Assembly (NCBI RefSeq): GCF_053078305.1
Contig: NZ_CP166879.1
Direction: 5' to 3' (one strand)
Length of the DNA: 64,000 bases
The notes beneath the pieces are model-generated. The model had not been told where the DNA came from. It ran no database searches and saw only the letters and a list, made by a program, of their open reading frames with translations. Positions within the stretch are counted from its first letter, which is position 1. Each line of letters opens with the position of its first letter. The translations under genes and the position numbers were made by a program. Shown here piece by piece: positions 14,150 to 29,688 of the stretch.

Positions 14150-14375
14150 GGCCAACGGGTCCTTTCCGGCGATCCGACAGGTTACGGGGCGGCGACCTCG
14201 CGGGTTTTCGCTATTTATGAAAATTTTCCGGTTTAAGGCGTTTCCGTTCTTCTTCGTCGTAACTTAATGTTTTTATTTAAAATACCCCCTGAAAAGAAAG
14301 GAAACGACAGGTGCTGAAAGCGAGCTTTTTGGCCTCTGTCGTTTCCTTTCTCTGTTTTTGTCCGTGGAATGAACA
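14150..14375 (+). promoter_or_regulatory. Helper prophage cos site (cosQ-cosN-cosB); cosN cohesive-end sequence GGGCGGCGACCT at 14187-14198
   Basis: gttacggggcggcgacctcgcgggttttcgctatttatgaaaattttccgg matches the lambda cos region as recalled and sits directly upstream of Nu1. Confidence 0.85.
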
Positions 14376-14895
14376 ATGGAAGTCAACAAAAAGCAGCTGG
14401 CTGACATTTTCGGTGCGAGTATCCGTACCATTCAGAACTGGCAGGAACAGGGAATGCCCGTTCTGCGAGGCGGTGGCAAGGGTAATGAGGTGCTTTATGA
14501 CTCTGCTGCCGTTATAAAATGGTATGCCGAAAGGGATGCTGAAATTGAGAACGAAAAGCTGCGCCGGGAGGTTGAAGAACTGCGGCAGGCCAGCGAGGCA
14601 GATCTCCAGCCAGGGACTATTGAGTACGAACGCCATCGACTTACGCGTGCGCAGGCCGACGCACAGGAACTGAAGAATGCCAGAGACTCCGCTGAAGTGG
14701 TGGAAACCGCATTCTGTACTTTCGTGCTGTCGCGGATCGCAGGTGAAATTGCCAGTATTCTCGACGGGATCCCCCTGTCGGTGCAGCGGCGTTTTCCGGA
14801 ACTGGAAAACCGACATGTTGATTTCCTGAAACGGGATATCATCAAAGCCATGAACAAAGCAGCCGCGCTGGATGAACTGATACCGGGGTTGCTGA

Positions 14896-14921
<26 letters not shown>
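14376..14921 (+). CDS. Nu1: Terminase small subunit Nu1
   Basis: 181-aa protein near-identical to lambda Nu1 as recalled (MEVNKKQLADIFGASIRTIQNWQEQGMPVLRGGGKGNEVLYDSAAV...). Confidence 0.95.
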
Positions 14922-17850
<2,929 letters not shown>

Positions 17851-17977
17851 TTATGTCTATCATCTCCCCGTAGTTGTCCGCATCGTTCGCCAACTCCACT
17901 GAAACCCTTGCTGCGGCTGGAATGTCGTTTTCCATACTTTTGATGACCGTTCATCACACTTCCAGGTTTTCGCGGTT

Positions 17978-18031
17978 TTGTGTATTGCAATGTGTATTGC
18001 AAATTGGCGATCGGGATGGGTGTGTATTGCA
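17978..18031. repeat. Three copies of TGTGTATTGCAA upstream of the island integrase (attL-proximal, putative integrase binding sites)
   Basis: Copies at 17978-17989, 17990-18001 and 18020-18031; the same motif occurs in tandem at 29588-29610 near the other island end. Confidence 0.7.
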
Positions 18032-18050
18032 AATCTCTTGAGGGCTGTTA

Positions 18051-19292
18051 ATGGCTATTGAAAACAAACTCAGTGACAAACTGTTAAAGAGTCTTGTCGG
18101 AAAACGGCAGGACAAACAAAAAACAATAGCGGATGGGCGCGGGTTGTCTGTGCGTGTAAGCATGGTTGGGGGGATCAGCTTTGTTTTTTACTATCGTCTT
18201 GGTGGCAGGGAATCCCCTCCGGTATGGCTTACACTTGGGCGCTATCCTGATATGTCTCTTGCAACAGCCAGGCGCATGCGTGATCAGTGCCGTGAGTGGC
18301 TGGCTGAAAATCTGGACCCCCGCAGGCAAATAAAACTTGCCGCCGAAAAAACCATGCAACCAGTGACCGTAAGGGATGCGCTGTTTTACTGGTACGACAA
18401 TCACGCCACAACAGCCAGAAAAGAGCATGAATATTTAATAAAACGATTTGAAAAGCATATCTTCCCCTATATCGGTGATATGGCTATAGAACAGTGCAAA
18501 TTACACACATGGCTTGCCGTCTTTGACAGGATCAAAAAAAATGCGCCTGTTATGTCTGGTGCAATTTTTCTTGATATCAAACAGGCGTTGCGTTTTTGTC
18601 GCGTCAGGCAATACATCGCGTGCGATCCCTTTGGCGATATTAACGTAAGTTATGTCGGGCGCTCATCCGGTATAAGGGATCGCGTTCTTAATATCAATGA
18701 AACAGCGGATGTATGGTCTTATGCTTACGGTAATAATTTGCTGACACTGTCATCAATACATAACAGAAGAATAATGGTTATCTGCCTGGTGTTTGGTTGC
18801 CGTCAGCAGGAGGCGAGGTTATCCACATGGGACGAATGGGATTTAAAAAACTGGGTATGGACAGTCCCAAAAGAGCACAGCAAAAACAAGGAGGCCATAG
18901 TAAGGCCTGTTCCTGACGGCATAAAACAATGGCTCGTTAATCTTTACGCAGAAACAAAAAATCGCGGTTATGTTGTCGGTTGTGCTTTGCAAAGGGCGAC
19001 AATAACAGGGGCTGCAAACAGAATATGCAGGCGTCTTGGTCATGATATTAATGGCTTGTGGTGCATACATGATTTCAGGCGCACATTTTCCACTGCGCTT
19101 AATGATATGGGGGCGGATCCTTATATTGTCGAACTTCTTTTAGGTCATAAAGTGAAAGGGGTTGCCGGTGTTTACAATAAAAGCAGGCATATAAAGAAAA
19201 AACTTGAGGTGCTTAATATGTGGGTTAATTACCTTAATACGATAGCAGGATTTAACAACAACGTTATCGAGCTTAATAAAGAGGTGGTGTGA
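18051..19292 (+). CDS. int: Tyrosine integrase (P4-type, N-terminal arm-binding DUF4102-like domain)
   Basis: 413-aa ORF; N-terminal region resembles P4-family integrases; C-terminal catalytic motifs HDFRRTF, LLGH and VYNKS (Tyr). Confidence 0.9.
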   Translation: MAIENKLSDKLLKSLVGKRQDKQKTIADGRGLSVRVSMVGGISFVFYYRLGGRESPPVWLTLGRYPDMSLATARRMRDQCREWLAENLDPRRQIKLAAEKTMQPVTVRDALFYWYDNHATTARKEHEYLIKRFEKHIFPYIGDMAIEQCKLHTWLAVFDRIKKNAPVMSGAIFLDIKQALRFCRVRQYIACDPFGDINVSYVGRSSGIRDRVLNINETADVWSYAYGNNLLTLSSIHNRRIMVICLVFGCRQQEARLSTWDEWDLKNWVWTVPKEHSKNKEAIVRPVPDGIKQWLVNLYAETKNRGYVVGCALQRATITGAANRICRRLGHDINGLWCIHDFRRTFSTALNDMGADPYIVELLLGHKVKGVAGVYNKSRHIKKKLEVLNMWVNYLNTIAGFNNNVIELNKEVV

Positions 19293-19293
19293 T

Positions 19294-19551
19294 ATGGCAA
19301 TTTATTCTCTTGTTGATGAAAACGATTTGCGCACAATGAAGGACATTGATCGGTTCATTCGTGAAAAAGAGTGCATAGCACTTACCACGCTGGCAAACTC
19401 AACACGCTGGAAAATGGAGCAGGCAGGTAAATTCCCGCGACGTATCAAGATCGGTGAACGTGCGGCAGGGTATCGACTTTCAGAGGTTCAGGCATGGATC
19501 CGTGGTGAGTGGCATCCTGGATGGAAACCTGGAAAAACAAAACAGCAATAA
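19294..19551 (+). CDS. alpA: AlpA-family excisionase/transcriptional regulator
   Basis: 85-aa HTH protein (ALTTLANSTRWKMEQAGKFPRRIKIGERAAGYRLSEVQAWI) immediately downstream of int. Confidence 0.7.
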   Translation: MAIYSLVDENDLRTMKDIDRFIREKECIALTTLANSTRWKMEQAGKFPRRIKIGERAAGYRLSEVQAWIRGEWHPGWKPGKTKQQ

Positions 19552-19605
19552 CCAGTAAATAACGCCCCTCATCAAGAGGGGTTTTTGTCTATAGGGTAAA
19601 ACGCG

Positions 19606-20184
19606 ATGAATAAAAATATTGCCGTGACGGGCAAGGGGTACGCTCGTCCAGTGAAAAAATTCTGTGATATTCGTGATCTTGTCGTTCTGCGCTTTGATGG
19701 TGTGAGCGTTCGCGTGGTGTATGTGAACGGCGATCCGTGGTTTGTTGCCGTTGACGTGTGCGCTGCGCTGGAAATTGTTGATCACAAGGTTGCGTTACGC
19801 CGTCTCGATGATGATGAAAAGGGGGAGTGTTTAATACCCACCCCAGGTGGAAATCAAACAATGCGAACGGTATGCGAGTCAGGGTTCTACAAACTAATCG
19901 CCAGAAGTCGGAAAGCTGTTACTCCTGGCACGTTCGCCCGTCGTTTCAGTAACTGGGTATTCAGAAATGTGATACCAGGTATCAGAAAAACGGGGGCTTA
20001 TGGTATCCCGTGGGGGGCATTACAGGATTTTTCCCGCCGTAAAGAGCAATATCAAATAAGTGCCAGCGAGAAGGGGAGGGAGCTACAGGCATGTAAGCGC
20101 AAAAAACGTGAACTGGAGGAAGAAGAAAAAAGGCTGATACGTGAATATCAGCCTGAGTTTTACTTTGGTGAGCGTATTCAGTAA
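19606..20184 (+). CDS. Bro-N domain protein (prophage antirepressor-like)
   Basis: N-terminal Bro-N-like region (VRVVYVNGDPWFVAVDVCAALEI...FYKLIARSRKA) with a charged coiled C-terminus. Confidence 0.6.
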   Translation: MNKNIAVTGKGYARPVKKFCDIRDLVVLRFDGVSVRVVYVNGDPWFVAVDVCAALEIVDHKVALRRLDDDEKGECLIPTPGGNQTMRTVCESGFYKLIARSRKAVTPGTFARRFSNWVFRNVIPGIRKTGAYGIPWGALQDFSRRKEQYQISASEKGRELQACKRKKRELEEEEKRLIREYQPEFYFGERIQ

Positions 20185-20521
20185 CCACACGCGGTGCTGA
20201 TTATACGGTACATCGTGTTAACCGAGAAGCTACCCACCAGCAAGGCAAAATCTTCTGCTAAAAAATGACATATGGCCAGTCGTCCGGAAAGCATGAAATT
20301 TTACAAAAATGGAAAATGAAGATTTTTATTGTGCTGGTGGGTAAAAACAAAAAGCGCCCCGTTGCCGGAGCGCCCTTGTGAACAATTAACCTGCTGCGAA
20401 AAAATTGGATCAGTGCAGGGAAATTATATCAACTGTGTGAAGAAGCGCCACAATTGCCAGTTTAGCTTTGCGGCGAACGCGTCAATAAAGAATATTCTTT
20501 CTTTAAATTCTGTTTGTGTAT

Positions 20522-20551
20522 TTTTTCGTAGTTTTTCGTAGTTTTTCGTAA
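20522..20551. repeat. Tandem decamer repeat (TTTTTCGTAG)x3 in island intergenic region
   Basis: ttttttcgtagtttttcgtagtttttcgtaagg; a related palindromic motif cgaaattttcgtag occurs at 29194-29207. Confidence 0.8.
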
Positions 20552-20647
20552 GGAGAAAGAGCGGCGCGTATGCACCGCTAAGGAGTTTATTTTCATGACT
20601 TATGCAGCTTTCAATCTTAGCACCGCCGTAGCTGGTGGACAAGGCTA

Positions 20648-20875
20648 TCAGCCAGGCGGTCGGTTTTTAGTGGCTTTTAACCGCCGTGGGTATTTCTCGA
20701 CAAAATCTTCAAGGGCAAATTTTTCTGGTGGCACTAAGCGCGGCGCTGGTGGTGGTATTTTTGTTCTGGTTAGTTCTTCCTCAAGTCTGGCGCAGGCTTC
20801 TAACTGCCTTTGCCGGATGATTTCATCATCTTGCGTTTGCGTGTCTTGTATTGGTGATAGTGTGTTGTTGGTCAT
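20648..20875 (-). CDS. Hypothetical protein (island, leftward operon)
   Basis: 75-aa acidic ORF downstream of the RHH gene on the minus strand; weak RBS. Confidence 0.35.
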   Translation of the reverse strand: MTNNTLSPIQDTQTQDDEIIRQRQLEACARLEEELTRTKIPPPAPRLVPPEKFALEDFVEKYPRRLKATKNRPPG

Positions 20876-20932
20876 GATACTGCCCTGTAAAGCAATGCGC
20901 CGGAGTACCTCACGCCACGGCGCTGATAGTGA

Positions 20933-21238
20933 TTATTCTGATTCTTGGGTCTTGCGACGCTGGAGTTCTTCGCGTGCAACGGTGACAAGTTGCCCGATTT
21001 CTTCCGCTGCTTTGATGCCGATTTGTTCGACCTTAGCCAGAGCATCCAGTGAAGACACAAGGGGATTTTCTCCGCTGCCTTCTGCCTGGCGGCGGGCGAT
21101 TTCACCGCGCATGGCGGTTACTATGAATCCGGCGTTGCTTTCACCGTCCAGTTTTACGGATTCCATGCCTTCAATAACATCATGCGGGATCCGAGCTGTC
21201 AGTGATTGTGATTTTGCGTTTTTTGAACCTGTAGCCAT
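20933..21238 (-). CDS. Ribbon-helix-helix (CopG/Arc-like) putative regulator, divergent from the island rightward operon
   Basis: SLTARIPHDVIEGMESV resembles an RHH beta-strand plus helix; ATG 21238 with RBS gaggat preferred over the TTG at 21253. Confidence 0.45.
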   Translation of the reverse strand: MATGSKNAKSQSLTARIPHDVIEGMESVKLDGESNAGFIVTAMRGEIARRQAEGSGENPLVSSLDALAKVEQIGIKAAEEIGQLVTVAREELQRRKTQESE

Positions 21239-21797
21239 CTGTAATCCTCTCAATGAAAGTGTAAGACAATATACACATAAAAAGTCTTACATAAAAGCAT
21301 TGACATGTAAGCCACCTATAAATAAAGTTACTTACACCTTGTTAATGCAAGGTGCAGAAACGACGAAACCCGGCAGTGCGCTAACACTAACCGGGCTTCT
21401 AACCACCAACGATAGAAAGCGTATCGAGGTAGCTATGAGAAATCATACCACACACCCGCAAGGGCGGGACTCGCACAACCTGAATAAATACATCTGGCGT
21501 TTTCTGGCCCGAAAAAACCAGTTGATCGCCAGTGTCGAAAATAGCTATGATTCCCGCGCACCTCATAAAACGGGTGCCGGGATTGGCGTCCTGGGCAAAA
21601 CTGAAGCGCATAACACGCGCCCCGCGTGTTTTTTTGTGCCGCATAGTCACACCTTATCAATGGTGGGCTGTACGGGGGCGGAGCAATCCGCGCCGGTTTC
21701 TTCAGTGTCCGGTTACGCCAACCCTGTACAGTCCGCCACCAGCGAAATTGGCGTTTCCGGTGGCGGTTATCTTAACCACACTGAGGAGGCTGCCAAC

Positions 21798-21989
21798 ATG
21801 GCTACTATCCCTACCCTTGTACATTCTCAAACCGCCTTTCTCTGGCGCTTTATCATCTTTGGCGCGTCAGACCATCAAATCATCCACGTCACCGCCTGGA
21901 CGGAACGCGAAGCGCGTAGCCGTTGCCCGTCCGGTTGTGTTGCTGTATTCGCCGCCCGTATTCGTCAGGAGGTGTGCCATGTGCAATAA
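21798..21989 (+). CDS. Icd-like small protein (host cell-division inhibitor family, tentative)
   Basis: 63-aa ORF with strong RBS gaggagg; MATIPTLVHSQTAFLWRFIIFGASDHQIIHV... recalled as resembling Icd-like proteins of P4-type islands; it is the only plausible part of ORF 20595-21989. Confidence 0.4.
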   Translation: MATIPTLVHSQTAFLWRFIIFGASDHQIIHVTAWTEREARSRCPSGCVAVFAARIRQEVCHVQ

Positions 21990-22431
21990 AACCACACCGG
22001 ACGCAGCCGCCGCGCTCACTACACTGATGCACGCGCTGATTGATATTTCTGTTATTGCTGACAGGGCGCATAAGCACGCCACCAGTGAAACAGAATATGC
22101 CGGGGCTTTCGTTCCTCATTCGCTGGCGGTTATGCAACTTAGTGCTGATATGGCGCTGAATGAGGCCAAAGCTATCCTGATTTCTGATTGTGAAAATGGG
22201 GGGGGGGTTATGCGTGATGATCGTTTTAATGCCCTGAAACAGGAGTTTGATGGTGCGCCTGATGATGCAGGTGATGCGCTTTCGTCAATATCCGAACTGA
22301 TAAGAGTGGCCTTTTTCTTACTTGGCACGAAAGAATATAAATCAACTGGAATAGACGTACTGAATATTACTGCTGATTATGCGGAATATATGGCAGAAGT
22401 GGATTTAAGAAAGATAACGGACAGGGGGTAA
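21979..22431 (+). CDS. Hypothetical protein (island early operon)
   Basis: RBS aggagg before ATG 21979; the upstream part of ORF 21532-22431 is rejected as a spurious extension. Confidence 0.5.
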   Translation: MCNKTTPDAAAALTTLMHALIDISVIADRAHKHATSETEYAGAFVPHSLAVMQLSADMALNEAKAILISDCENGGGVMRDDRFNALKQEFDGAPDDAGDALSSISELIRVAFFLLGTKEYKSTGIDVLNITADYAEYMAEVDLRKITDRG

Positions 22432-22432
22432 T

Positions 22433-22666
22433 ATGCGTGATATTTACCACGAAACAATAGACCGCGCATTTAGTGCCCTTGCTTACGCTGAAGGTATGTA
22501 CGAAATATTGCAAATGTGTCTGGAAACATTTGGCGATAATGAGCGTGATGTAAAGAAGGCGCGGATTATTAAATCACTGATAACTCTCCTTGAACCTGTA
22601 ATAACAGAGTTGCAGGAAATAGACTTATTGCACGACAGATATAACGAACAGCACACCGGAGAATAA
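22433..22666 (+). CDS. Hypothetical protein
   Basis: 77-aa ORF tightly packed after the preceding gene (start 2 nt after its stop). Confidence 0.45.
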   Translation: MRDIYHETIDRAFSALAYAEGMYEILQMCLETFGDNERDVKKARIIKSLITLLEPVITELQEIDLLHDRYNEQHTGE

Positions 22667-22671
22667 AAATA

Positions 22672-22971
22672 ATGAAACTTAAATATCCTGGCTTAACTGC
22701 CAGTGGCAACACTCACCCTAAATTTACGCGCGGTGATATTTACCGCGACCAGTACGGCGGCACGGTAATGATTAAGGGCGTGGCGGGACGGTGCGTAACT
22801 TACCGCCGTGAAGGCTACGAATATGATTGCGTGATGCCTGTTTATCAGTTCCGGCGTGATTTTTCTCTGGTACAGACCGCGCCGCATAACGTGCCCACCA
22901 GCAACGCCAGGGCACGGGCAAACATCCAGAAGCTGAAAACCATGATTAACGGATTCAGGGGTAAAAAATGA
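22672..22971 (+). CDS. Hypothetical protein
   Basis: 99-aa ORF; 3' end overlaps the rep start by 4 nt. Confidence 0.45.
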   Translation: MKLKYPGLTASGNTHPKFTRGDIYRDQYGGTVMIKGVAGRCVTYRREGYEYDCVMPVYQFRRDFSLVQTAPHNVPTSNARARANIQKLKTMINGFRGKK

Positions 22972-24377
22972 AACTGGCACCGAACGTAAAACGATTACCG
23001 AAAGATAAATACACCGAAGCGGTTATTTTTGCGGGTATTGATGCTCACTCATTCGCAGAGCATTACATCATTGCACAGGCCAAAAAAGCAGGCGATCCAG
23101 TCCCTCCCGTTTATCTGGGGCGTTATCAGTTAAGCGAACTGGATAACCTCCAGATTGTTGATGATGGGCGATACAGGGCGACGGTGATACGCGCCGGAAA
23201 TATTGAAGAGCCGCAGCTGTTAACCATCGCCACGAAACTGGCGAGCGCCGGAGTCCAGGAGGCGCGGCTACTTTCTGAAAATTTCGAATTGCTGGAGGAA
23301 TGGAGCGACCAGCTTCCACGGCTTAGGGAGGCATGGGAACGCGGGGAAAGCCTGGTCATGAAAAAAATTCCCCAGCGAAAAACCACGCTACCGATGAGCG
23401 TTGGATCTACCGGATACGACACACAGCTTGATTACGTGGTAAAGGGGATTATTCCGGCATCGTCGCTTTGCAGCATATACGGGGCGAGCGGTTCCTATAA
23501 ATCATTCCTTGCCGGATCGTGGGCGTGTCACGTTTCCACGGGCCGCCAGTGGGGAGGCCGCAGGGTGGCGCATGGCGCTGTTCTCTATGTGGTTGGTGAA
23601 GGCGGTATCGGCGTTCCGCGTCGTGTAAAAGCCTGGGAGGTTGTGCACGGTGAGCAGGTGAAAAATCTGTATCTGGTAAACCGTCCCATCTTTCCGGCTG
23701 TCCCGCTTGATGTTGATGAACTGGTTATTGCTGCCAGTCAGGTGGAGAGGGAAACGGGTAAACCTGTTCGCATGATTATTCTGGACACGCTGGCGCGTTG
23801 CTTTGGCGGCAATGATGAAAATGACTCCCGCGACATGGGGGCATTTATCCGTGGTTGTGACGAGCTTAAACGGCGCACAGGGGCTACGGTGCTGGTGGTT
23901 CACCATTCCGGCAAGGATGAAACAAAGGGGGCGCGTGGTTCCAGTGCATTTCGTGCATCACTGGACGCTGAATACCGGATACGCAGGGAGGACGCAGGAA
24001 GCGAAGCGCTGGTTATCTCATGCACCAAAATGAAGGACGCGGAGGAACTCAAAGAGGCTGCCTATGATTTGCGGGTGGTGGAGCTTTTTACCGACGCTGA
24101 CGGGGAGTTAATTACGTCGCTGGTGGTGGTGGATAAGCCGCGCCCTCCCGTTGAACTGGAGCGCATCGAGGAGGCAGGCAACAAGACGGAAAACCATACC
24201 GCGCTATGGGGGTGCATCCGTTCACGCACACAGAACGGCGACAAGTGCACGATCCCGCTGTTACGTGACGATATGAAAAAGCTGGGGTATGACACAAAAC
24301 ACCTTAAACGATGGTTAGCCAAACTGGAAAAAGACGACGTGATCTACATTGACGGTGATGATGTAGGACCACTGTAA
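22968..24377 (+). CDS. rep: Replication initiator/helicase (RepA-like AAA_25 RecA-fold ATPase with N-terminal primase-C-like region)
   Basis: Walker A-like SIYGASGSYKSFLA, Walker B-like RMIILDTLAR, and TVLVVHHSGKD; followed directly by an iteron array. Confidence 0.75.
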   Translation: MKLAPNVKRLPKDKYTEAVIFAGIDAHSFAEHYIIAQAKKAGDPVPPVYLGRYQLSELDNLQIVDDGRYRATVIRAGNIEEPQLLTIATKLASAGVQEARLLSENFELLEEWSDQLPRLREAWERGESLVMKKIPQRKTTLPMSVGSTGYDTQLDYVVKGIIPASSLCSIYGASGSYKSFLAGSWACHVSTGRQWGGRRVAHGAVLYVVGEGGIGVPRRVKAWEVVHGEQVKNLYLVNRPIFPAVPLDVDELVIAASQVERETGKPVRMIILDTLARCFGGNDENDSRDMGAFIRGCDELKRRTGATVLVVHHSGKDETKGARGSSAFRASLDAEYRIRREDAGSEALVISCTKMKDAEELKEAAYDLRVVELFTDADGELITSLVVVDKPRPPVELERIEEAGNKTENHTALWGCIRSRTQNGDKCTIPLLRDDMKKLGYDTKHLKRWLAKLEKDDVIYIDGDDVGPL

Positions 24378-24582
24378 AAAGTGGGCATTAAAAGTGGGAA
24401 AGGTGGGCGATTTAACGTAATTTTAACAAAATCACCCACTTTCCCACGTGTATATATCCCAAAAAGTGGGCACTAAAAAAATACCTATGAAACAAGATGA
24501 TATAAATCCCAAACTTCCCACGTTGGACGAAGTGGGAAAACGTAAAAAGTGGGCGAAAAAAGTGGGTAGAGGTGGGCAAATG
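24375..24582. repeat. Island origin of replication: iteron array with GTGGG core (AAAGTGGGCA/AAGTGGGAAA, direct and inverted copies)
   Basis: About 8 direct and 3 inverted copies of (A)AGTGGG(C/A) within ~200 bp immediately 3' of rep. Confidence 0.7.
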
Positions 24583-24831
24583 ACTCAAAAACACAGAGAC
24601 AGAACAGAGCCAAAATATAAAGCGTTAGACATGACAGAGCACGCTTTAAAGGTGGCAATCAGGGTAATAGACCGCCACACGCGGGAAGGATACGCGAAGG
24701 AACATCCCGACCTGATAAGCGCATTCATGACCACAGCGGCGGCAAACTTTGCCACGCTGACAGAACGGGAGATAGCCGAAGCGGAACAGGTAACAACCAT
24801 CAACGTTAAAACCGGAGAGGTGGAATCATGA
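24580..24831 (+). CDS. Hypothetical protein
   Basis: In-frame ATG just after the iteron array; the upstream part of ORF 24448-24831 overlaps the iterons and is unlikely to be coding. Confidence 0.4.
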   Translation: MTQKHRDRTEPKYKALDMTEHALKVAIRVIDRHTREGYAKEHPDLISAFMTTAAANFATLTEREIAEAEQVTTINVKTGEVES

Positions 24832-25238
24832 CAGCACAGATAGCCGCTTACGGGCGGCTGGTGGACGACCCGCAGGTAAAACAAACCAGCAAGGGCACAC
24901 CGATGACGCTGGCGCGTATGGCGGTATCTCTGCCATGCAGCCAGGCACAGGACGGGCAGGCTACGTTATGGCTATCAGTGATGGCATTTGGTAAGCAGGC
25001 CGACTTCCTGGCTAAACATCAAAAAGGCGATGTTGCCAGCGTATCCGGCACGATGCAGGTAAGCCAGTGGACCAGACAGAACGGGGAAACGCGGCAGGGT
25101 TATCAGGTTATTGCAGACAGTGTAATCAGTGCCCGTGCTGCCCGTCCTGGCGGGAGCAGACGTACAACCACAGGCACACAGGGTAATCAGCCACCAGCGG
25201 GAGGCGATGACCCTTACGGTGACGGTATTCCGTTCTGA
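24828..25238 (+). CDS. ssb: Single-stranded DNA-binding protein (SSB-like)
   Basis: OB-fold signature (LWLSVMAFGKQADFL...KGDVASVSGTM) and acidic C-terminal tail DDPYGDGIPF. Confidence 0.7.
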   Translation: MTAQIAAYGRLVDDPQVKQTSKGTPMTLARMAVSLPCSQAQDGQATLWLSVMAFGKQADFLAKHQKGDVASVSGTMQVSQWTRQNGETRQGYQVIADSVISARAARPGGSRRTTTGTQGNQPPAGGDDPYGDGIPF

Positions 25239-25248
25239 GGGGGTGACG

Positions 25249-25521
25249 ATGGTACATGACCGCATAGCGGAGGAACTCGAGGCAAAAGGCTTTTACCGGA
25301 GGGCGGCGGCGCGATGGGGTGAAGTTATGCAGCTGGTGGAGACAGACAAGGAACGGCATCAGGTTACGATGCGACGGCTGGAATGTTCCAGGAAGGCACA
25401 GAGGCCACCGGAGCCGCCGGATAACTTCGGAGACCTGAAAAAAGCAGTAGATCGCACTTATGCCGAAATGGGTATGGATGGTGTAAGCGATGAAATATGG
25501 CGTAATTACCCAGACAGCTAA
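25249..25521 (+). CDS. PerC-family transcriptional activator-like protein
   Basis: AEELEAKGFYRRAAARWGEVMQLVETDKERHQV resembles the PerC/Pch signature; RBS gagggg; real start internal to ORF 25129-25521. Confidence 0.5.
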   Translation: MVHDRIAEELEAKGFYRRAAARWGEVMQLVETDKERHQVTMRRLECSRKAQRPPEPPDNFGDLKKAVDRTYAEMGMDGVSDEIWRNYPDS

Positions 25522-25527
25522 TCAACA

Positions 25528-25549
25528 GCCGGAGAAATCCGGCTTTTTT
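25528..25549 (+). terminator. Intrinsic terminator (GCCGGAGAAATCCGGC + T6)
   Basis: Perfect hairpin plus T-run directly after the PerC-like gene; the identical hairpin recurs at 27802-27824. Confidence 0.7.
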
Positions 25550-25561
25550 GTACCCAAAAAA

Positions 25562-25598
25562 AGCCCGATAAGTACAGGAGGCATCTTATCGGGCTTTT
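25562..25598 (+). terminator. Second tandem intrinsic terminator
   Basis: agcccgataag...cttatcgggct hairpin followed by tttt. Confidence 0.55.
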
Positions 25599-25676
25599 GC
25601 ATATGAGGTTTTTTTGGTGCACTGACACACATGATCGGGGTAATCATTTCATAATTTGCAACACAACTCAACATCA

Positions 25677-25737
25677 TTGCACAAAATGCAATCCTGATTA
25701 TAATCAGAGCTGGATGAACATCCAGTTCTGATTTTTT
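25677..25737 (+). promoter_or_regulatory. Sigma70-like promoter followed by a hairpin and U-run, upstream of the island capsid/packaging operon
   Basis: TTGCAC (25677-25682), 16-nt spacer, TATAAT (25699-25704); hairpin ctggatg-aa-catccag (25710-25725) then ttctgatttttt. Confidence 0.5.
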
Positions 25738-25760
25738 AAGTCAAAGAGGAATTTCTTACT

Positions 25761-25967
25761 ATGGCTGAAGAGAAAAAAGGCGGTGTTTCGGTGTACATAA
25801 GCCCCGAAATCGTGGAGGTGCTCAAGCAGCGCCACAAAAAAAACTATGAGGCTGGCGTAGCGGCTGGACTGGATCCGCTGATGACGCCGGAGCCGTCGAT
25901 AGGTTCACTTGTGCGCTCTTATTTACTTGCGGCGCTTGGGATGCATAAAAATTATGGTGGTGAATAA
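25761..25967 (+). CDS. Hypothetical small protein (first gene of island morphogenetic operon)
   Basis: 68-aa ORF with RBS agagga; stop overlaps the capsid gene start. Confidence 0.4.
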   Translation: MAEEKKGGVSVYISPEIVEVLKQRHKKNYEAGVAAGLDPLMTPEPSIGSLVRSYLLAALGMHKNYGGE

Positions 25968-27022
25968 TGACAGTAAAAGCAATGGCACTTACAACTAACC
26001 AGCTTTTCGCGTACCTGAATCGCGGGGATATTGCAGAATTTAAATTCAGTCCGCTGTTTACCACGCTGTTTTTCCCGAACGTGGCGACCTTCAACACCCA
26101 GAACATCATGCTGGACACCCTGGACATTGAAGAGGTTACGATGTCAGCGTTCTGTTCGCCTATGGTGGGTAGTCAGGTCCAGCGCGATAAAGGGTACGAA
26201 ACCAGCACGATTAAACCAGGCTACATGAAACCCAAACACGAAATCGATCCAACAAAAACCATCATGCGCATGGCTGGAGAAGATCCGGCACAGCTTAACG
26301 ACCCTACCTACCGCCGTATGCGCCTGATTACTGGCAACATGCGCCGCCAGATAAACGCCATTAAAGCGCGCGTGGAATGGCTGGCGGTGAATGCGATAAC
26401 GACCGGAAAAAACATCATTGAGGGCGAAGGCATAGAACGCTATGAAATCGACTGGAAAATACCGGAAAACTGCATCATAGAGCAGGCCAAGGGTAAAAAA
26501 TGGTCCGAGCATGATAAAGATATTTACGATCCAATCTATGACATCGAACTATACGCAGATCAGGCAGGTTGCCCCGCCAACGTCATGATTATGGGCGCTG
26601 AGGTATGGCGCACGTTACGCAGCTTTAAAAAATTCCGCGAACTGTACGATCTTTCCCGTGGTTCAGAATCCGCCGCAGAACTGGCCTGTAAAAACCTGGG
26701 TGAAGTAGTGAGCTTTAAAGGCTATCTGGGCGATATTGCCCTTATCGTCTATTCCGGCAAATACACTGACAGCGACGGTACCGAAAAATATTTCCTTGAG
26801 CCTGATTTGCTGGTCCTGGGTAACACCAACAATAAAGGGCTGGTGGCCTATGGTGCGATTATGGATCAGGAAGCGGTAAGAACGGGCGCAACGCAAAACA
26901 TGTTCTACCCGAAAAACTGGATTGAAGACGGCGATCCGGCGATTGAGTACGTTCAGACGCACAGCGCACCGCAGCCGGTACCGGCAGATATTCGCAAATT
27001 TGTTACCGTCAAAATTGCTTAA
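25967..27022 (+). CDS. Major capsid protein homologue (diverged lambda gpE-like, HK97 fold)
   Basis: Collinear with the helper E at 32160-33185: FKFSPLFTTLFF / FKFDPLFLRLFF, KPGYMKPKHEIDP / TPGYVKPKHEVNP, DPTYRRMRLITGNMRRQINAI / DPAYRRRRIIMQNMRDEELAI. Confidence 0.8.
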   Translation: MTVKAMALTTNQLFAYLNRGDIAEFKFSPLFTTLFFPNVATFNTQNIMLDTLDIEEVTMSAFCSPMVGSQVQRDKGYETSTIKPGYMKPKHEIDPTKTIMRMAGEDPAQLNDPTYRRMRLITGNMRRQINAIKARVEWLAVNAITTGKNIIEGEGIERYEIDWKIPENCIIEQAKGKKWSEHDKDIYDPIYDIELYADQAGCPANVMIMGAEVWRTLRSFKKFRELYDLSRGSESAAELACKNLGEVVSFKGYLGDIALIVYSGKYTDSDGTEKYFLEPDLLVLGNTNNKGLVAYGAIMDQEAVRTGATQNMFYPKNWIEDGDPAIEYVQTHSAPQPVPADIRKFVTVKIA

Positions 27023-27033
27023 CGGGGGATTCT

Positions 27034-27369
27034 ATGGACACTCCATACATTGAGTTATTTGCAGGCAGTCAGCAGGTATCCACGACGCTGGTACATTTTG
27101 CCGCTGATGCTGGCGTTATTCAGGAATTTACCCCGCTGATGCTGGCGGACAATGGCGAGTTTAAGCCGTGGGATGGTCAGGAATCTGGCAAGGCTGTTTA
27201 TCTGACCTCGTACCCCGTGGACACGTCAAAGCAGAAATCAGCACAGTGTTACAAGACGGGGATATTTAATATCGCCGCCGTAAACTGGCCTGAGAGCGCC
27301 GACACTGACGCGAAAAAATGCGCCGCCTTTGCGGGTTCTGGCGTATCCGTTCAGCCGCTGGCGCGATAA
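27034..27369 (+). CDS. Head decoration protein homologue (diverged lambda gpD-like)
   Basis: 111 aa; TPLMLADNGEFKPWDG...AAFAGSGVSV parallels the helper D (31766-32104) [17 protein letters not shown]...[11 protein letters not shown]. Confidence 0.7.
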   Translation: MDTPYIELFAGSQQVSTTLVHFAADAGVIQEFTPLMLADNGEFKPWDGQESGKAVYLTSYPVDTSKQKSAQCYKTGIFNIAAVNWPESADTDAKKCAAFAGSGVSVQPLAR

Positions 27370-27381
27370 GCAGGGGAAACG

Positions 27382-27795
27382 ATGGCAACGAATGAAAGCA
27401 TCATGGCGCTACCGCTGGCGAGTAAATTTAAAGCAGAAGCGCGGGCAATGGCTGACAGAGGTTTATCAACCTACGAGGCCGTATATCAACTCAACAAACT
27501 GGAAGAGCAGGACAAGCCGCGCGCTGATGCGATTATGGCGCTTCATGAACATAACGACTATCAGCCGCTGTTACGTGCAATGGCAAACGTGCCATGTATT
27601 AGCGTCGATAATGCTCGTGAAATCCTGAACATGACCATAGAGCAGGAGCGCCCAAAGGTTGCGCCGGAGCTTACCGCAGCCTTTGAAAACTTTATGGACA
27701 TGCACAGCCCGAAAGCCGTATCACCCGGCATGGCATACGACGGCAGAAACCAGGGCGATGAAGGCGACGTCGATCGCATACTGAAAACCATCTGA
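27382..27795 (+). CDS. Hypothetical protein (island morphogenetic operon)
   Basis: 137-aa ORF followed by a strong terminator; no family recognised. Confidence 0.45.
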   Translation: MATNESIMALPLASKFKAEARAMADRGLSTYEAVYQLNKLEEQDKPRADAIMALHEHNDYQPLLRAMANVPCISVDNAREILNMTIEQERPKVAPELTAAFENFMDMHSPKAVSPGMAYDGRNQGDEGDVDRILKTI

Positions 27796-27801
27796 CATAA
27801 G

Positions 27802-27824
27802 GCCGGAGAAATCCGGCTTTTTTT
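27802..27824 (+). terminator. Intrinsic terminator (GCCGGAGAAATCCGGC + T7)
   Basis: Same hairpin as at 25528; ends the capsid operon just before the island cos. Confidence 0.7.
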
Positions 27825-27825
27825 A

Positions 27826-27895
27826 CGGGTCCTTTCCGGCATATGGACCCGTTACGGGGCGGCGACCTCGCGGTTTTTCGCTATTTATGAGCTTT
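27826..27895 (+). promoter_or_regulatory. Island cos site: cosN identical to the helper (GGGCGGCGACCT at 27857-27868), with a distinct downstream cosB-like region
   Basis: gggtcctttccggc...gttacggggcggcgacctcgcggtttttcgctatttatga aligns with the helper cos at 14155-14222, then diverges before terS. Confidence 0.7.
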
Positions 27896-28001
27896 TTTCG
27901 GGTGCTGGTGGTGGTTTTGTTTTTCGCTCTATCTCTATGAATAAAAAGGGAAAGATAAAACCAATACACCAACCTGAAACATTACTTAAGTGGGGATATT
28001 G

Positions 28002-28544
28002 ATGAAATCGCACCTGATGAACAAAAAAAACATGGCGCAAAGCTGCCGTGTAAGTGCGACAGCGTTCGACAAGTGGGGAGTGACTCCCGTTGAACGTAAA
28101 GGACGCGAGGCTTTTTACGATGTTGCCAGCGTGATAGACAATCGGGTAAGCAATGCAATTAACCAGGTTACAAACGACAAAGGCGAGATTGATGATGATG
28201 AACTCTTACGAGTCAGGATCAGATTACTGACCGCCCAGGCTGAGGCGCAGGAACTTAAAAACGAGCGCGATCGCGGTGACGTAATTGATACTGAGTTTTG
28301 CCTGTACGCGCTTTCAAAGCTGGCGAGTCAGATTTCTTCAATCATGGACAGTTTGCCGCTTACCATGCAAAGGCGCTTCCCGCAGATTACTCCCGCTATG
28401 CTGGATGGGCTTAAAAGGGAAGTGGTTAAAGCCTGTAATGCCAGTGCCACAGTTGCCGACAACCTCCCGAAGATACTGGCTGATTACCTGATGGAAACTA
28501 CCGGAGACGTACCGGAGAAGTTGCTACAGAAGAAAGGCGAGTAA
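28002..28544 (+). CDS. Terminase small subunit homologue (Nu1-like, divergent N-terminal DNA-binding region)
   Basis: C-terminal two-thirds collinear with Nu1 (LTAQAEAQELKNERDRGDVIDTEFCLYALSKLASQISSIMDSLPLTMQRRFPQI vs LTRAQADAQELKNARDSAEVVETAFCTFVLSRIAGEIASILDGIPLSVQRRFPEL); N-terminal ~50 aa diverged. Start 28002 chosen by RBS. Confidence 0.75.
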   Translation: MKSHLMNKKNMAQSCRVSATAFDKWGVTPVERKGREAFYDVASVIDNRVSNAINQVTNDKGEIDDDELLRVRIRLLTAQAEAQELKNERDRGDVIDTEFCLYALSKLASQISSIMDSLPLTMQRRFPQITPAMLDGLKREVVKACNASATVADNLPKILADYLMETTGDVPEKLLQKKGE

Positions 28545-28689
28545 CAGACGCGCAATTATTGAACAAAAGTAAGGCCCGACATGAAATCACCCAAAAATGC
28601 CTTTTTCATGCGTTTGTATGTCTGACCTTTTACGGTTTCGATATTATAAAAAACAAATAGTTACGCTCGAGAGGTACCGACACGCATTT

Positions 28690-28775
28690 TTCAGGAAAAT
28701 TTTCATAAACAGATAAAAACCGCGAGGTCGCCGCCCCGTAACGGGCCATAATTCCAGGAAGGACCCGACGACACC
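28690..28775 (-). promoter_or_regulatory. Second cos-like site in inverted orientation (cosN at 28725-28736, minus strand), helper-like flank
   Basis: Minus-strand read gttacggggcggcgacctcgcggtttttatctgtttatgaaaattttcc shares ttatgaaaattttcc with the helper cosB side; no terminase gene lies downstream in this orientation. Confidence 0.6.
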
Positions 28776-28800
28776 AGGCTATCAGAACGATGAGGGCACA

Positions 28801-29082
28801 ATGACAGAAGCCGAACTACTGGGATTAATCCGCTACGTTACCGGAATCAGCCAGCAGCATGACGAACAGGCCACGCAGCCGGACAGCGTGACCGCTGAAA
28901 ATTATGCGCGTGTTGTTGCTGAGGTGATGCGCCGTGATGGTATCCAGCTTAATGATGCAGATATGCGCGACATACGGATCCGCGTTCTTGAAATGCTGGC
29001 CTACCGTCGCCGCGTGCAGACGTACAGGGAAAAAGCAAAAATAACGTACCAGTGGAAGAAGCCGGAGCGATTACGGCGGTAA
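28801..29082 (+). CDS. Hypothetical protein
   Basis: 93-aa ORF near the right island end; no family recognised. Confidence 0.4.
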   Translation: MTEAELLGLIRYVTGISQQHDEQATQPDSVTAENYARVVAEVMRRDGIQLNDADMRDIRIRVLEMLAYRRRVQTYREKAKITYQWKKPERLRR

Positions 29083-29477
29083 CTTGCTGATATTCCCGAT
29101 AACGCAAAATTGCGCTCTGTCCTAACCCGTTGATATTTTCGGGAACAGCCAACGGCTGAGGCCGGAACAACGATTATCTTTCAGATAGTCAGAGCTACGA
29201 AATTTTCGTAGTTTAATTACTCGCCAGTTTATCGTTAACTCGTTGATATTTTCGGTAACCTCAATTTGAGGAGATCGGAAACATAACCCTTCACATTCTG
29301 AATGGTTATAATGACCACTCAGACCATCAAGGCAACCATAACGAACATCGTTACGGTTGGAGCTTTTACCCCACTGGGGGGAAGGTGCACATCTGGATCA
29401 TCATTACCGTGATCAAGGGTATGTAAAACCCACCAGCCTGATTAACTGTTAACCGGAAAAAAGCCAGGTAGCCAATC

Positions 29478-29501
29478 TCGATATGGGGATCCCCATATCG
29501 A
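29478..29501. repeat. Perfect 24-bp palindrome TCGATATGGGGATCCCCATATCGA
   Basis: Exact inverted repeat centred on GGATCC within the ~600-bp non-coding right arm of the island. Confidence 0.9.
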
Positions 29502-29587
29502 CATTAACGCCCCCTAGAACTGCGCATATCTGCATATAAAAACATCCACCAGCTTTATGACGGATGCCGCTCATCTGATAAATAATC

Positions 29588-29610
29588 GTGTATTGCAATG
29601 TGTATTGCGA
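29588..29610. repeat. Two tandem copies of (T)GTGTATTGC(A/G)A near the island right end (attR-proximal)
   Basis: gtgtattgcaatgtgtattgcga; same motif as the attL-proximal triplet at 17978-18031. Confidence 0.7.
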
Positions 29611-29688
29611 CTCCTTTAAACGATAGGTTTGAGCATTCGTAATGTACTGTTTTTAAATTTTATTTTTTCCTGTCTTTTCATAAAAGCC

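Follow-up and report, generated by a model that had tools for sequence, protein, structure and literature searches.

To our knowledge, the only mechanism by which Gram-negative cos-type phage-inducible chromosomal islands (PICIs) capture a lambda-like terminase is Rpp, which needs the small terminase subunit (TerS) of the helper phage. Rpp redirects the helper terminase to cos1 (PMC6739421), and the island EcCICFT073 has two cos sites (Fillol-Salom et al. 2018, PMC6092414). With respect to the phages, DNA with the cos site of N15 is not packaged by the lambda or 21 terminases, and a TerS chimera consisting of the N15 DNA-binding domain and the lambda C-terminus functions with the large terminase subunit (TerL) of lambda (PMC4669245). 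In the study of helper-embedded PICIs (HE-PICIs), terS and cos specificity were outside the analysis, and the model island 11capE has no terS (PMC10111431). Here, we describe an 11.8-kb island (17856-29682) in the argW/yfdC vicinity of an E. coli chromosome (NCBI RefSeq assembly GCF_053078305.1, contig NZ_CP166879.1; the whole 64,000-nt stretch analyzed is referred to as the window). The island lies inside portal gene B of a lambda-type prophage, its presumed helper, and is co-oriented with this gene. It carries a cos site (cos1), a gene for a Nu1-family TerS and a second, inverted cos site (cos2). We suggest that positions 27826-28768 constitute a packaging-specificity cassette, in which the island TerS, acting at a private cosB, redirects the helper terminase to island DNA. 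On balance, we consider this reading probable.

Three copies of GGGCGGCGACCT, the cosN sequence, are present in the window, where 0.17 would be expected by chance: one in the helper (14187, + strand) and two in the island (27857, + strand, and 28725, - strand). At cos1, the likeness to the helper extends beyond cosN. Of the 59 positions of island 27826-27884, 51 are shared with helper 14156-14214, among them those of the cosQ box and of an exact run of 24 nt spanning cosN; the same cosQ box is also identical to the phage 21 box annotated as R4 (terminal cos cleavage). Approximately 35 bp past cosN, the likeness to the helper cosB ends. The island has no lambda R boxes (CGTTTCC) in 27869-28001, whereas the helper cosB has three, and the distance from cosN to the start codon is 145 nt in the island versus 189 nt in the helper (14187 to the Nu1 ATG at 14376). 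For comparison, we used 80 IMG/VR loci together with E. coli genomes, with TerS proteins that are 82-100% identical; 83 loci were scanned. In almost all of these, the spacing of 145 nt is kept, with three loci off by 1-3 nt, and terS immediately follows cosN-cosB in the island of the window. A preliminary description of this DNA, based on the letters alone, had stated that cosN is shared at 27857-27868 and 14187-14198, that about 45 nt of identical flank accompany it, and that the island cosB differs from that of the helper. Our data agree with the shared cosN and the distinct cosB; the flank is similar without being an unbroken identity.

R-like motifs, which the same description had led us to expect in the island cosB (cosB1), are present as two conserved blocks, 27906-27921 and, inverted, 27962-27978. 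The first block, TGGTGGTGGTTTTGTT, is near-invariant in 54 distinct island sequences (nucleotide diversity (pi) 0.06, versus 0.25 at 4-fold sites of terS). It is at the position of R3 in lambda and N15 and resembles the box GGTTGTTGT of N15 and of L105, an N15-type helper prophage in another genome. In the second block, 15 of 19 positions are invariant (pi 0.07); this block is located ~55 bp past the R3-position box, 106-122 bp from cosN and upstream of the terS ATG, and L105 has an inverted box at the equivalent position. N15 itself has an R3 box, GAGGTTGTTGTT, at bp 48-59 and an inverted rR2 within terS; the island has a related, differing box, GGTGGTGGTTTT, at bp 51-62, and a search for an N15-style rR2 inside the island terS found none. 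We regard the island cosB as a derived sub-type of the N15 specificity that is closer to the L105/Monarch layout.

The protein encoded next to cosB1 is a homologue of Nu1, as had been proposed. It aligns with helper Nu1 over the full length (BLASTP, 36% identity, E 1e-34) and matches Pfam PF07471 (Phage_Nu1) with residues 33-149 (E 2.2e-22) and PHROG 57 (E 9e-52). The start codon, previously placed at GTG 27990, is probably ATG 28002, giving a protein of 180 aa as annotated in relatives. Identity to helper Nu1 is unevenly distributed: 39% in the DNA-binding domain (residues 1-50), 19% in the linker, 54% in the central core (residues 72-130) and 31% in the last ~40 residues, which form the TerL-binding tail. 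For the same tail, lambda and N15 are 78% identical and lambda and 21 are 31% identical, and the lambda and 21 tails are functionally incompatible (for the roles of the small-terminase domains, see PMC9026076). Because the core is 54% identical and the tail only 31%, i.e. no closer than lambda is to the incompatible 21, the part conserved with Nu1 is the oligomerization core and not the gpA-binding tail. Thus, the earlier view of a conserved C-terminal and a non-conserved N-terminal region is only half correct, and the argument built on a conserved gpA-contacting C-terminus is weak. The DNA-binding domain, which had been described as swapped, is not an unrelated domain and has the characteristics of a diverged N15-type winged helix-turn-helix. 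The best phage match to the island TerS is N15 gp1 (46% overall), the DNA-binding domain is 59% identical to that of N15 gp1 and 39% to that of lambda/helper Nu1, and the recognition helix is SATAFDKWG in the island versus SVQAFDKWG in N15. Based on these similarities, we assign the island domain to the known N15 specificity class as a diverged member.

An AlphaFold2 model of the island TerS has a strand-helix-helix-wing (hairpin)-helix arrangement followed by long helices, with a pLDDT of ~80 in residues 1-50. With this model, the top matches in Foldseek were MerR-type winged helix-turn-helix proteins (probability 0.96-0.98, with weak E values of at least 0.05); using phmmer against the PDB, the island TerS had no match, neither the Nu1 DNA-binding domain nor Rpp/RppC. 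All 83 loci have an intact open reading frame (ORF) of 180 aa with hardly any variation in the first 50 residues, and terS is under purifying selection (pi 0.02-0.07 at codon positions 1 and 2 versus 0.20-0.28 at 4-fold sites). The tail keeps the hydrophobic spacing of Nu1 (LK.E..KA.N...LP..L..Y). Moreover, recognition helix and box covary among the four lineages compared: SVQAFDKW is found with GGTTGTTGT in N15 and L105, and SATAFDKW or GVTAFDKW with GGTGGTGGT in the E. coli/Enterobacter islands. This covariation supports the two cosB blocks as TerS sites and a specificity of the islands that is private and derived from that of N15.

The inverted cos2, which contains the third copy of cosN, was overlooked in the preliminary description. 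Its cosN is 180 nt past the terS stop codon, and 27826-27897 and 28696-28767 form an inverted repeat of 72 nt (82% identity) that links cos1 and cos2. The cosB of cos2 and phage 21 cos share 80% identity over the annotated R3/I1/R2/R1 sites, and CATGTCGG-type boxes are retained. Approximately 40% of the relatives have cos2, always inverted and at a fixed position, and the remaining ~60% have no cos2 or a truncated cos2. Among the relatives, at least three flavors of R box occur in the cosB of cos2, i.e. CATGTCGG (as in the window), CATGTCGTTTCT and CAGATCC(G/T)TTCT, and every flavor keeps the R3-I1-R2(inverted)-R1 layout. With its complete 21-type cosB, cos2 could serve as a second packaging entry for helpers of 21 specificity, for which the island TerS would not be needed.

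The right half of cosN varies among the cos1 sites of the relatives (L055-L074 and others), with GGGCGGCGACCT, GGGCGTCAGGCG, GGGCGGAAGGCG and GGGCGGCAGACG represented; a test for covariation between these variants and the TerS tail among the islands found none. The idea that the island cosN is always the same as that of the resident helper was tested and failed: the two match in five of eight helper-embedded pairs and differ in three. Some cos1 sites of relatives bear the cosQ flank typical of cos2, which suggests that sequence has been exchanged between the repeats.

The slot between the two cos sites can hold other genes. The island in the window is syntenic, gene for gene, with EcCICFT073 and with the island of IHE3034, to which it is 90% identical at the nucleotide level. 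In EcCICFT073, rppA (144 aa) replaces terS and is present between cos1 and an inverted cos2 with matching flanks. P0100 is a TerS of 194 aa with a phage-21-type DNA-binding domain fused to an island-type C-terminal half; its gene lies behind a 21-type cosB1 (L085-L088, L090) in islands at the phoQ site, which is also the site of EcCICFT073. Because the slot between the inverted cosN sites holds rppA in EcCICFT073, we consider terS, rpp and the chimeric terS with the 21-type DNA-binding domain to be alternative cassettes of one slot. The island-type TerS lineage is also present on related Enterobacter and Citrobacter islands, and in E. coli the terS-bearing sister lineage is found in about a quarter of the complete genomes (more than 1,400 of 5,426).

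On three Enterobacter/Citrobacter-type contigs (L093-L095), a TerS of 170 aa has the same type of DNA-binding domain, and accessory genes for FRG and DUF3892 proteins follow terS; these islands appear to be located in front of a lambda-like capsid gene E that is truncated, with FI, FII, Z, U and V after it. The genome of the IMG/VR entry UViG_2617271340 has two copies of this TerS (L005, L006, L096, L097) with cosB1 regions that are 1 nt apart, as well as two identical integrases, one by a lambda-type portal and the other by a portal that is 58% identical and accompanied by a 70%-identical TerL. Probably, this genome has two embedded islands in two different prophages.

In the model that we suggest, cos1 combines a cosQ/cosN like that of the helper with a short cosB that is private to the island and of the N15/Monarch kind. 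The R3 position of this cosB is occupied by a GGTGGTGGT box, followed ~55 bp later by an inverted copy. The N15-type winged helix-turn-helix of TerS (helix SATAFDKW) would bind the GGTGGTGGT boxes. Because the island has no TerL, TerS would have to place helper gpA on cosN, and island concatemers would then be cut and packaged rightwards from cos1. By contrast, helper Nu1, with its lambda specificity, should not use cosB1 based on the published genetics of lambda and 21 versus N15. We take direct recruitment of helper TerL by the tail of the island TerS to be the most likely route, yet it is the weakest step of the model. Redirection of packaging by cos1-terS, as envisaged in the preliminary description, is well supported by comparison but unproven: the anatomy, rppA in the slot of a sister island and the N15 genetics are in its favor, while direct binding of gpA by the island TerS is what we infer. 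That the island has no large terminase gene, as had also been claimed, agrees with the family matches of its ORFs.

Several observations weigh against this model. The TerL-binding tail is 31% identical to that of lambda, the same level as between lambda and the incompatible 21, and the closest TerS in the phage collection is only 48% identical in the C-terminal, TerL-binding half. The same TerS tail occurs in islands embedded in prophages in which the N-terminal region of TerL (first 300 residues) resembles that of lambda at 99% in some cases and at just 70% in others, and this argues against a tight co-adaptation. In the window, cos2 is of the 21 type and the resident helper of the lambda type, and the two are therefore mismatched. 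A terminator hairpin precedes cos1, and a scan for sigma-70 promoters in 27600-29200 identified none for terS, with the two terminator calls of that scan corresponding to the cosN palindromes only; given the hairpin upstream of cos1, terS expression may need antitermination or read-through of helper late transcription. Lastly, the islands of IHE3034 and 18098 encode TerS, and no transfer was observed after mitomycin C induction of the native strains (PMC6092414).

The distribution of conserved residues in TerS is also compatible with an Rpp-like scenario, in which TerS and helper Nu1 co-assemble via the core into a mixed oligomer, the island subunits read cosB, the Nu1 subunits supply the gpA-binding tail, and helper packaging is blocked simultaneously. 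The core (residues 72-130) is the part best conserved with Nu1 while the tail is diverged, RppA from the same slot of a sister island heterodimerizes with the helper TerS (PMC6739421), and one type of TerS tail occurs with diverse helper TerL proteins. However, Rpp lacks a TerL-binding region, whereas the island TerS retains a full-length tail that is under purifying selection and has the Nu1-like hydrophobic spacing, and RppA has no sequence similarity to the island TerS (E 1.3). We consider a mixed oligomer a serious rival, though less likely than direct recruitment of TerL.

PICIs often interfere with their helpers, and TerS could function mainly as a decoy that blocks packaging of the helper by binding its cos or by titrating gpA, with the island being packaged via cos2 or by N15-type helpers. 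An N15-type TerS can recognize the lambda cos, and the chimeric TerS P0100 indicates that the island-type C-terminal half is retained even where a helper has the same DNA specificity. Interference as the main function nevertheless appears improbable to us, because conserved private cosB blocks beside cosN with a fixed spacing are hard to explain unless TerS acts on the island cos, and because ~60% of the relatives have no complete cos2 to rely on. We give very little credence to the idea that cos1-terS is an inert relic of a captured N15/Monarch-type segment without a function today: the resident phage L105 with a matching cos-terS layout and the lack of transfer reported for TerS-bearing islands (PMC6092414) would fit, but the 180-aa ORF is intact at each of the 83 loci and subject to purifying selection, conservation extends to the non-coding boxes, and more than 1,400 of the 5,426 complete E. 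coli genomes carry the element. Thus, redirection of the helper terminase by the island TerS at its private cosB is the reading that we prefer.

The geometry of the two cosN sites has a further aspect. In some islands, the segment cosN-cosB1-terS-cosB2-cosN is flipped relative to the genes for the capsid, decoration, 137-aa and 93-aa proteins, and the junctions are exactly at cosN. Inverted cassettes (L086, L089 and L090 among the loci) are found in L086 and three similar contigs, in the complete genomes 2014C-4587, JNE181771 and 2013C-4282, in PM4-5 and LZHX12, and in JNE151685, and counterparts that are 98.8% identical are in the normal orientation in other strains. In total, approximately six complete E. 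coli genomes have the inversion, against roughly 500 in which the two cos sites are ordered normally. We rejected an assembly artefact as the source because six complete genomes and at least three sequence lineages have the inverted arrangement; by the same lineages, at least three independent inversion events are indicated. Inversion could occur by recombination over the 26-72-nt inverted repeat, or by a double cut by terminase followed by religation. In the latter case, cuts at both cosN sites would free a fragment whose two 12-nt cohesive ends are identical and that could be religated either way. In other words, the helper terminase, and not a recombinase, could invert terS and exchange the pairings of cosB with cosQ. 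That the segment between the inverted cosN sites is an exchangeable, terminase-invertible packaging-specificity cassette is speculative and, in our estimate, unlikely. If true, it would represent a phage-driven switch of helper range and TerS expression, and the cosN geometry would allow whole cassettes (rpp, N15-type terS and 21-type chimeric terS, each with its cosB) to move between islands and phages.

The surroundings of the cassette are in line with the placement of the island (Table 1). Portal gene B of the prophage is split into an N-terminal part (17021 to ~17855) and a C-terminal part (from ~29683), and the prophage genes D and E and the tail genes follow from ~31.7 kb on. The island is delimited by 13-bp att cores, AAGGCGATTTATG and AAAGCCATGTATG, at 17843-17855 and 29683-29695, and has GTGTATTGCAA arm-type repeats at 17980-18032 and 29588-98. 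Helper Nu1 is 99-100% identical to Nu1 of other lambda-type prophages, and we take it to be identical to lambda Nu1. A portal N-terminal fragment adjoins the integrase in all 21 IMG/VR integrase relatives with upstream sequence, some of the portals being only 56-63% identical. Islands with this integrase are mostly inside lambda-type prophages, with Nu1 and gpA 99-100% identical to those of the helper in the window.

Table 1. Features of the helper prophage and of the island, in window coordinates.
Feature	Position	Strand	Remarks
Helper cos	14156-14375	+	cosQ, cosN and lambda-type cosB with three CGTTTCC boxes; cosN as in the island, flank similar
Helper Nu1 and gpA (TerL)	14376-16821	+	Nu1 14376-14921, gpA 14896-16821; sole large terminase in the window
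Integrase, island	18051-19292		
RepA-type helicase, island	22968-24377		followed by genes for a single-stranded DNA-binding protein and then a 68-aa ORF
gpE-like major capsid protein, island	25967-27022		
gpD-like decoration protein, island	27034-27369		
137-aa protein, island	27382-27795		resembles scaffold-like C-terminus of head proteases; cassette follows
Hairpin with U-run, intrinsic-terminator-like	27799-27825	+	fold -16.9 kcal/mol, z -3.5; kept in relatives; ends the 137-aa gene before cos1
cosQ-type box of cos1, CGGGTCCTTTCC	27826-27837	+	same as helper 14156-14167
cosN of cos1, GGGCGGCGACCT	27857-27868	+	identical to helper cosN 14187-14198 (+)
Segment beside cosN, common to lambda-like phages	27869-27890	+	21 of 22 positions as in helper
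R3-position block, TGGTGGTGGTTTTGTT	27906-27921	+	candidate primary TerS-binding site; bp 50-65 from cosN
Inverted R-like block	27962-27978	-	candidate R2-equivalent; CAATACACCAACCTGAA on + strand, GGTTGGTGT on - strand
terS, Nu1-family small terminase (180 aa)	28002-28544	+	N15-type winged helix-turn-helix, conserved central core, island-specific C-terminal tail with 12-aa extension
cosB of cos2, phage-21 type	28571-28686	-	R1 28571-86, R2 28614-29, I1 28651-65, R3 28671-86
cosN of cos2, inverted	28725-28736	-	matches GGGCGGCGACCT
cosQ-type box of cos2	28757-28768	-	TCGGGTCCTTCC on - strand
93-aa ORF, island	28801-29082		beyond the cassette

Downstream of the integrase gene, the island has AlpA/Xis-like, Bro-N, 464-aa regulator-like and DUF4222 genes and then the helicase gene. 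This order, with int, an alpA-like gene, a replication module and a late cluster for capsid and decoration proteins followed by the cos sites, is that of Gram-negative PICIs of the EcCICFT073 type, as is the size of ~10-15 kb and the absence of lysis and tail genes; we conclude from the gene content that the island belongs to the EcCICFT073 family. Its position within, and co-orientation with, a prophage late gene is that of an HE-PICI. Based on the family matches of the ORFs, genes for a large terminase, portal, protease, tail or lysis are absent from the island, and we rejected an identity as a capsid-forming PICI (cf-PICI) because genes for TerL, portal and protease are missing. In NCBIfam, the island TerS and the 93-aa, 137-aa and 68-aa proteins had zero matches.

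The C-terminal half of the 464-aa ORF (20595-21989) matches phage repressor and regulator families; the islands of EcCICFT073 and IHE3034 lack the ORF at this position, and it may represent cargo or a regulator. The 137-aa protein corresponds to PHROG 1999 and matches head maturation proteases (PHROG 53) at their scaffold-like C-terminal end (positions 494-567), which, together with the capsid and decoration genes of the island, hints at a scaffold encoded by the island. In some relatives, an AlpA-like gene of 127 aa stands in for the 137-aa gene.

Earlier publications cover the island family, the presence of two cos sites and the embedding in helper late genes (PMC6092414, PMC6739421, PMC10111431). 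As far as our literature search went, a TerS-type cassette with a private specificity derived from N15, the allelic relation of this cassette to rpp, the exchangeability of cosB in cos2 and the inversions at cosN are new, and the search identified no paper in which a Nu1-type TerS of these islands is characterized. A modular system that tracks the packaging specificities of helpers is suggested by the existence of alternative cassettes, by the exchangeable cosB of cos2 and by the inversions at cosN. Such a modularity would bear on which phages spread these islands and their cargo. Moreover, if the island TerS works with the helper TerL, the islands would represent a natural experiment in recombining DNA specificity and TerL binding in small terminases.

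Among the described systems, N15 and Monarch (Feiss 2015, PMC4669245) have a packaging specificity similar to that of cos1. Besides the relationship between the DNA-binding domains (59% identity), they share the FDKWG helix core, a G/T-rich R3 box and a short cosB with the island, and cos sites of this type are not used by lambda and 21. The island differs in having GGTGGTGGT instead of GGTTGTTGT, two substitutions in the recognition helix (VQ to AT), a C-terminal half that is only 44% identical, and no partner gene for TerL. Also, the inverted second box of the island is upstream of the ATG (bp 106-122), whereas the rR2 of N15 is within terS (bp 249-260). SaPIbov5, P4 and the HE-PICI 11capE resemble the island in that their cosN matches that of the helper and that they depend on the helper terminase; however, they rely wholly on the helper TerS reading a helper-type cos, and in this respect they are similar to cos2 and not to cos1 with terS. 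As in the HE-PICIs (Barcia-Cruz et al. 2023, PMC10111431), the island sits inside one of its presumed helper's late genes and is co-oriented with it, in this case portal gene B.

Rpp (RppA/RppC; Fillol-Salom 2019, PMC6739421; Murialdo & Feiss 2022, PMC9026076) is encoded in the same island family and in the same slot between cos1 and an inverted cos2. In both cases, a specificity protein with a winged helix-turn-helix is encoded beside a helper-like cosQ/cosN and a private cosB. However, Rpp proteins are 139-154 aa, have another oligomerization domain, have no TerL-binding region and need the helper TerS (PMC6739421, PMC9026076). By contrast, the island TerS is a full-length Nu1 homologue (PF07471) of 180 aa with a Nu1-like C-terminal half, and with an E value of 1.3 to RppA it does not belong to the Rpp family. 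The TerS proteins of Staphylococcus aureus pathogenicity islands (SaPIs) of the SaPI1/SaPIbov1 type (TerS-SP) are similar to the island TerS in that they are satellite homologues of the helper TerS with their own DNA specificity; in both cases, the satellite has no TerL and the helper TerL is presumably used. SaPIs differ in using headful pac packaging, in the unrelated fold of their TerS and in having Ppi, which inhibits the helper TerS; the island described here has a cos system with a Nu1-type TerS, and no Ppi-like function was identified on it. Thus, by its anatomy alone, i.e. its own TerS, its own cosB and no TerL, the island would fit a SaPI-type hijacking by TerS, and if the island TerS works with the helper TerL, cos1-terS would be the cos-phage counterpart of this SaPI mechanism.

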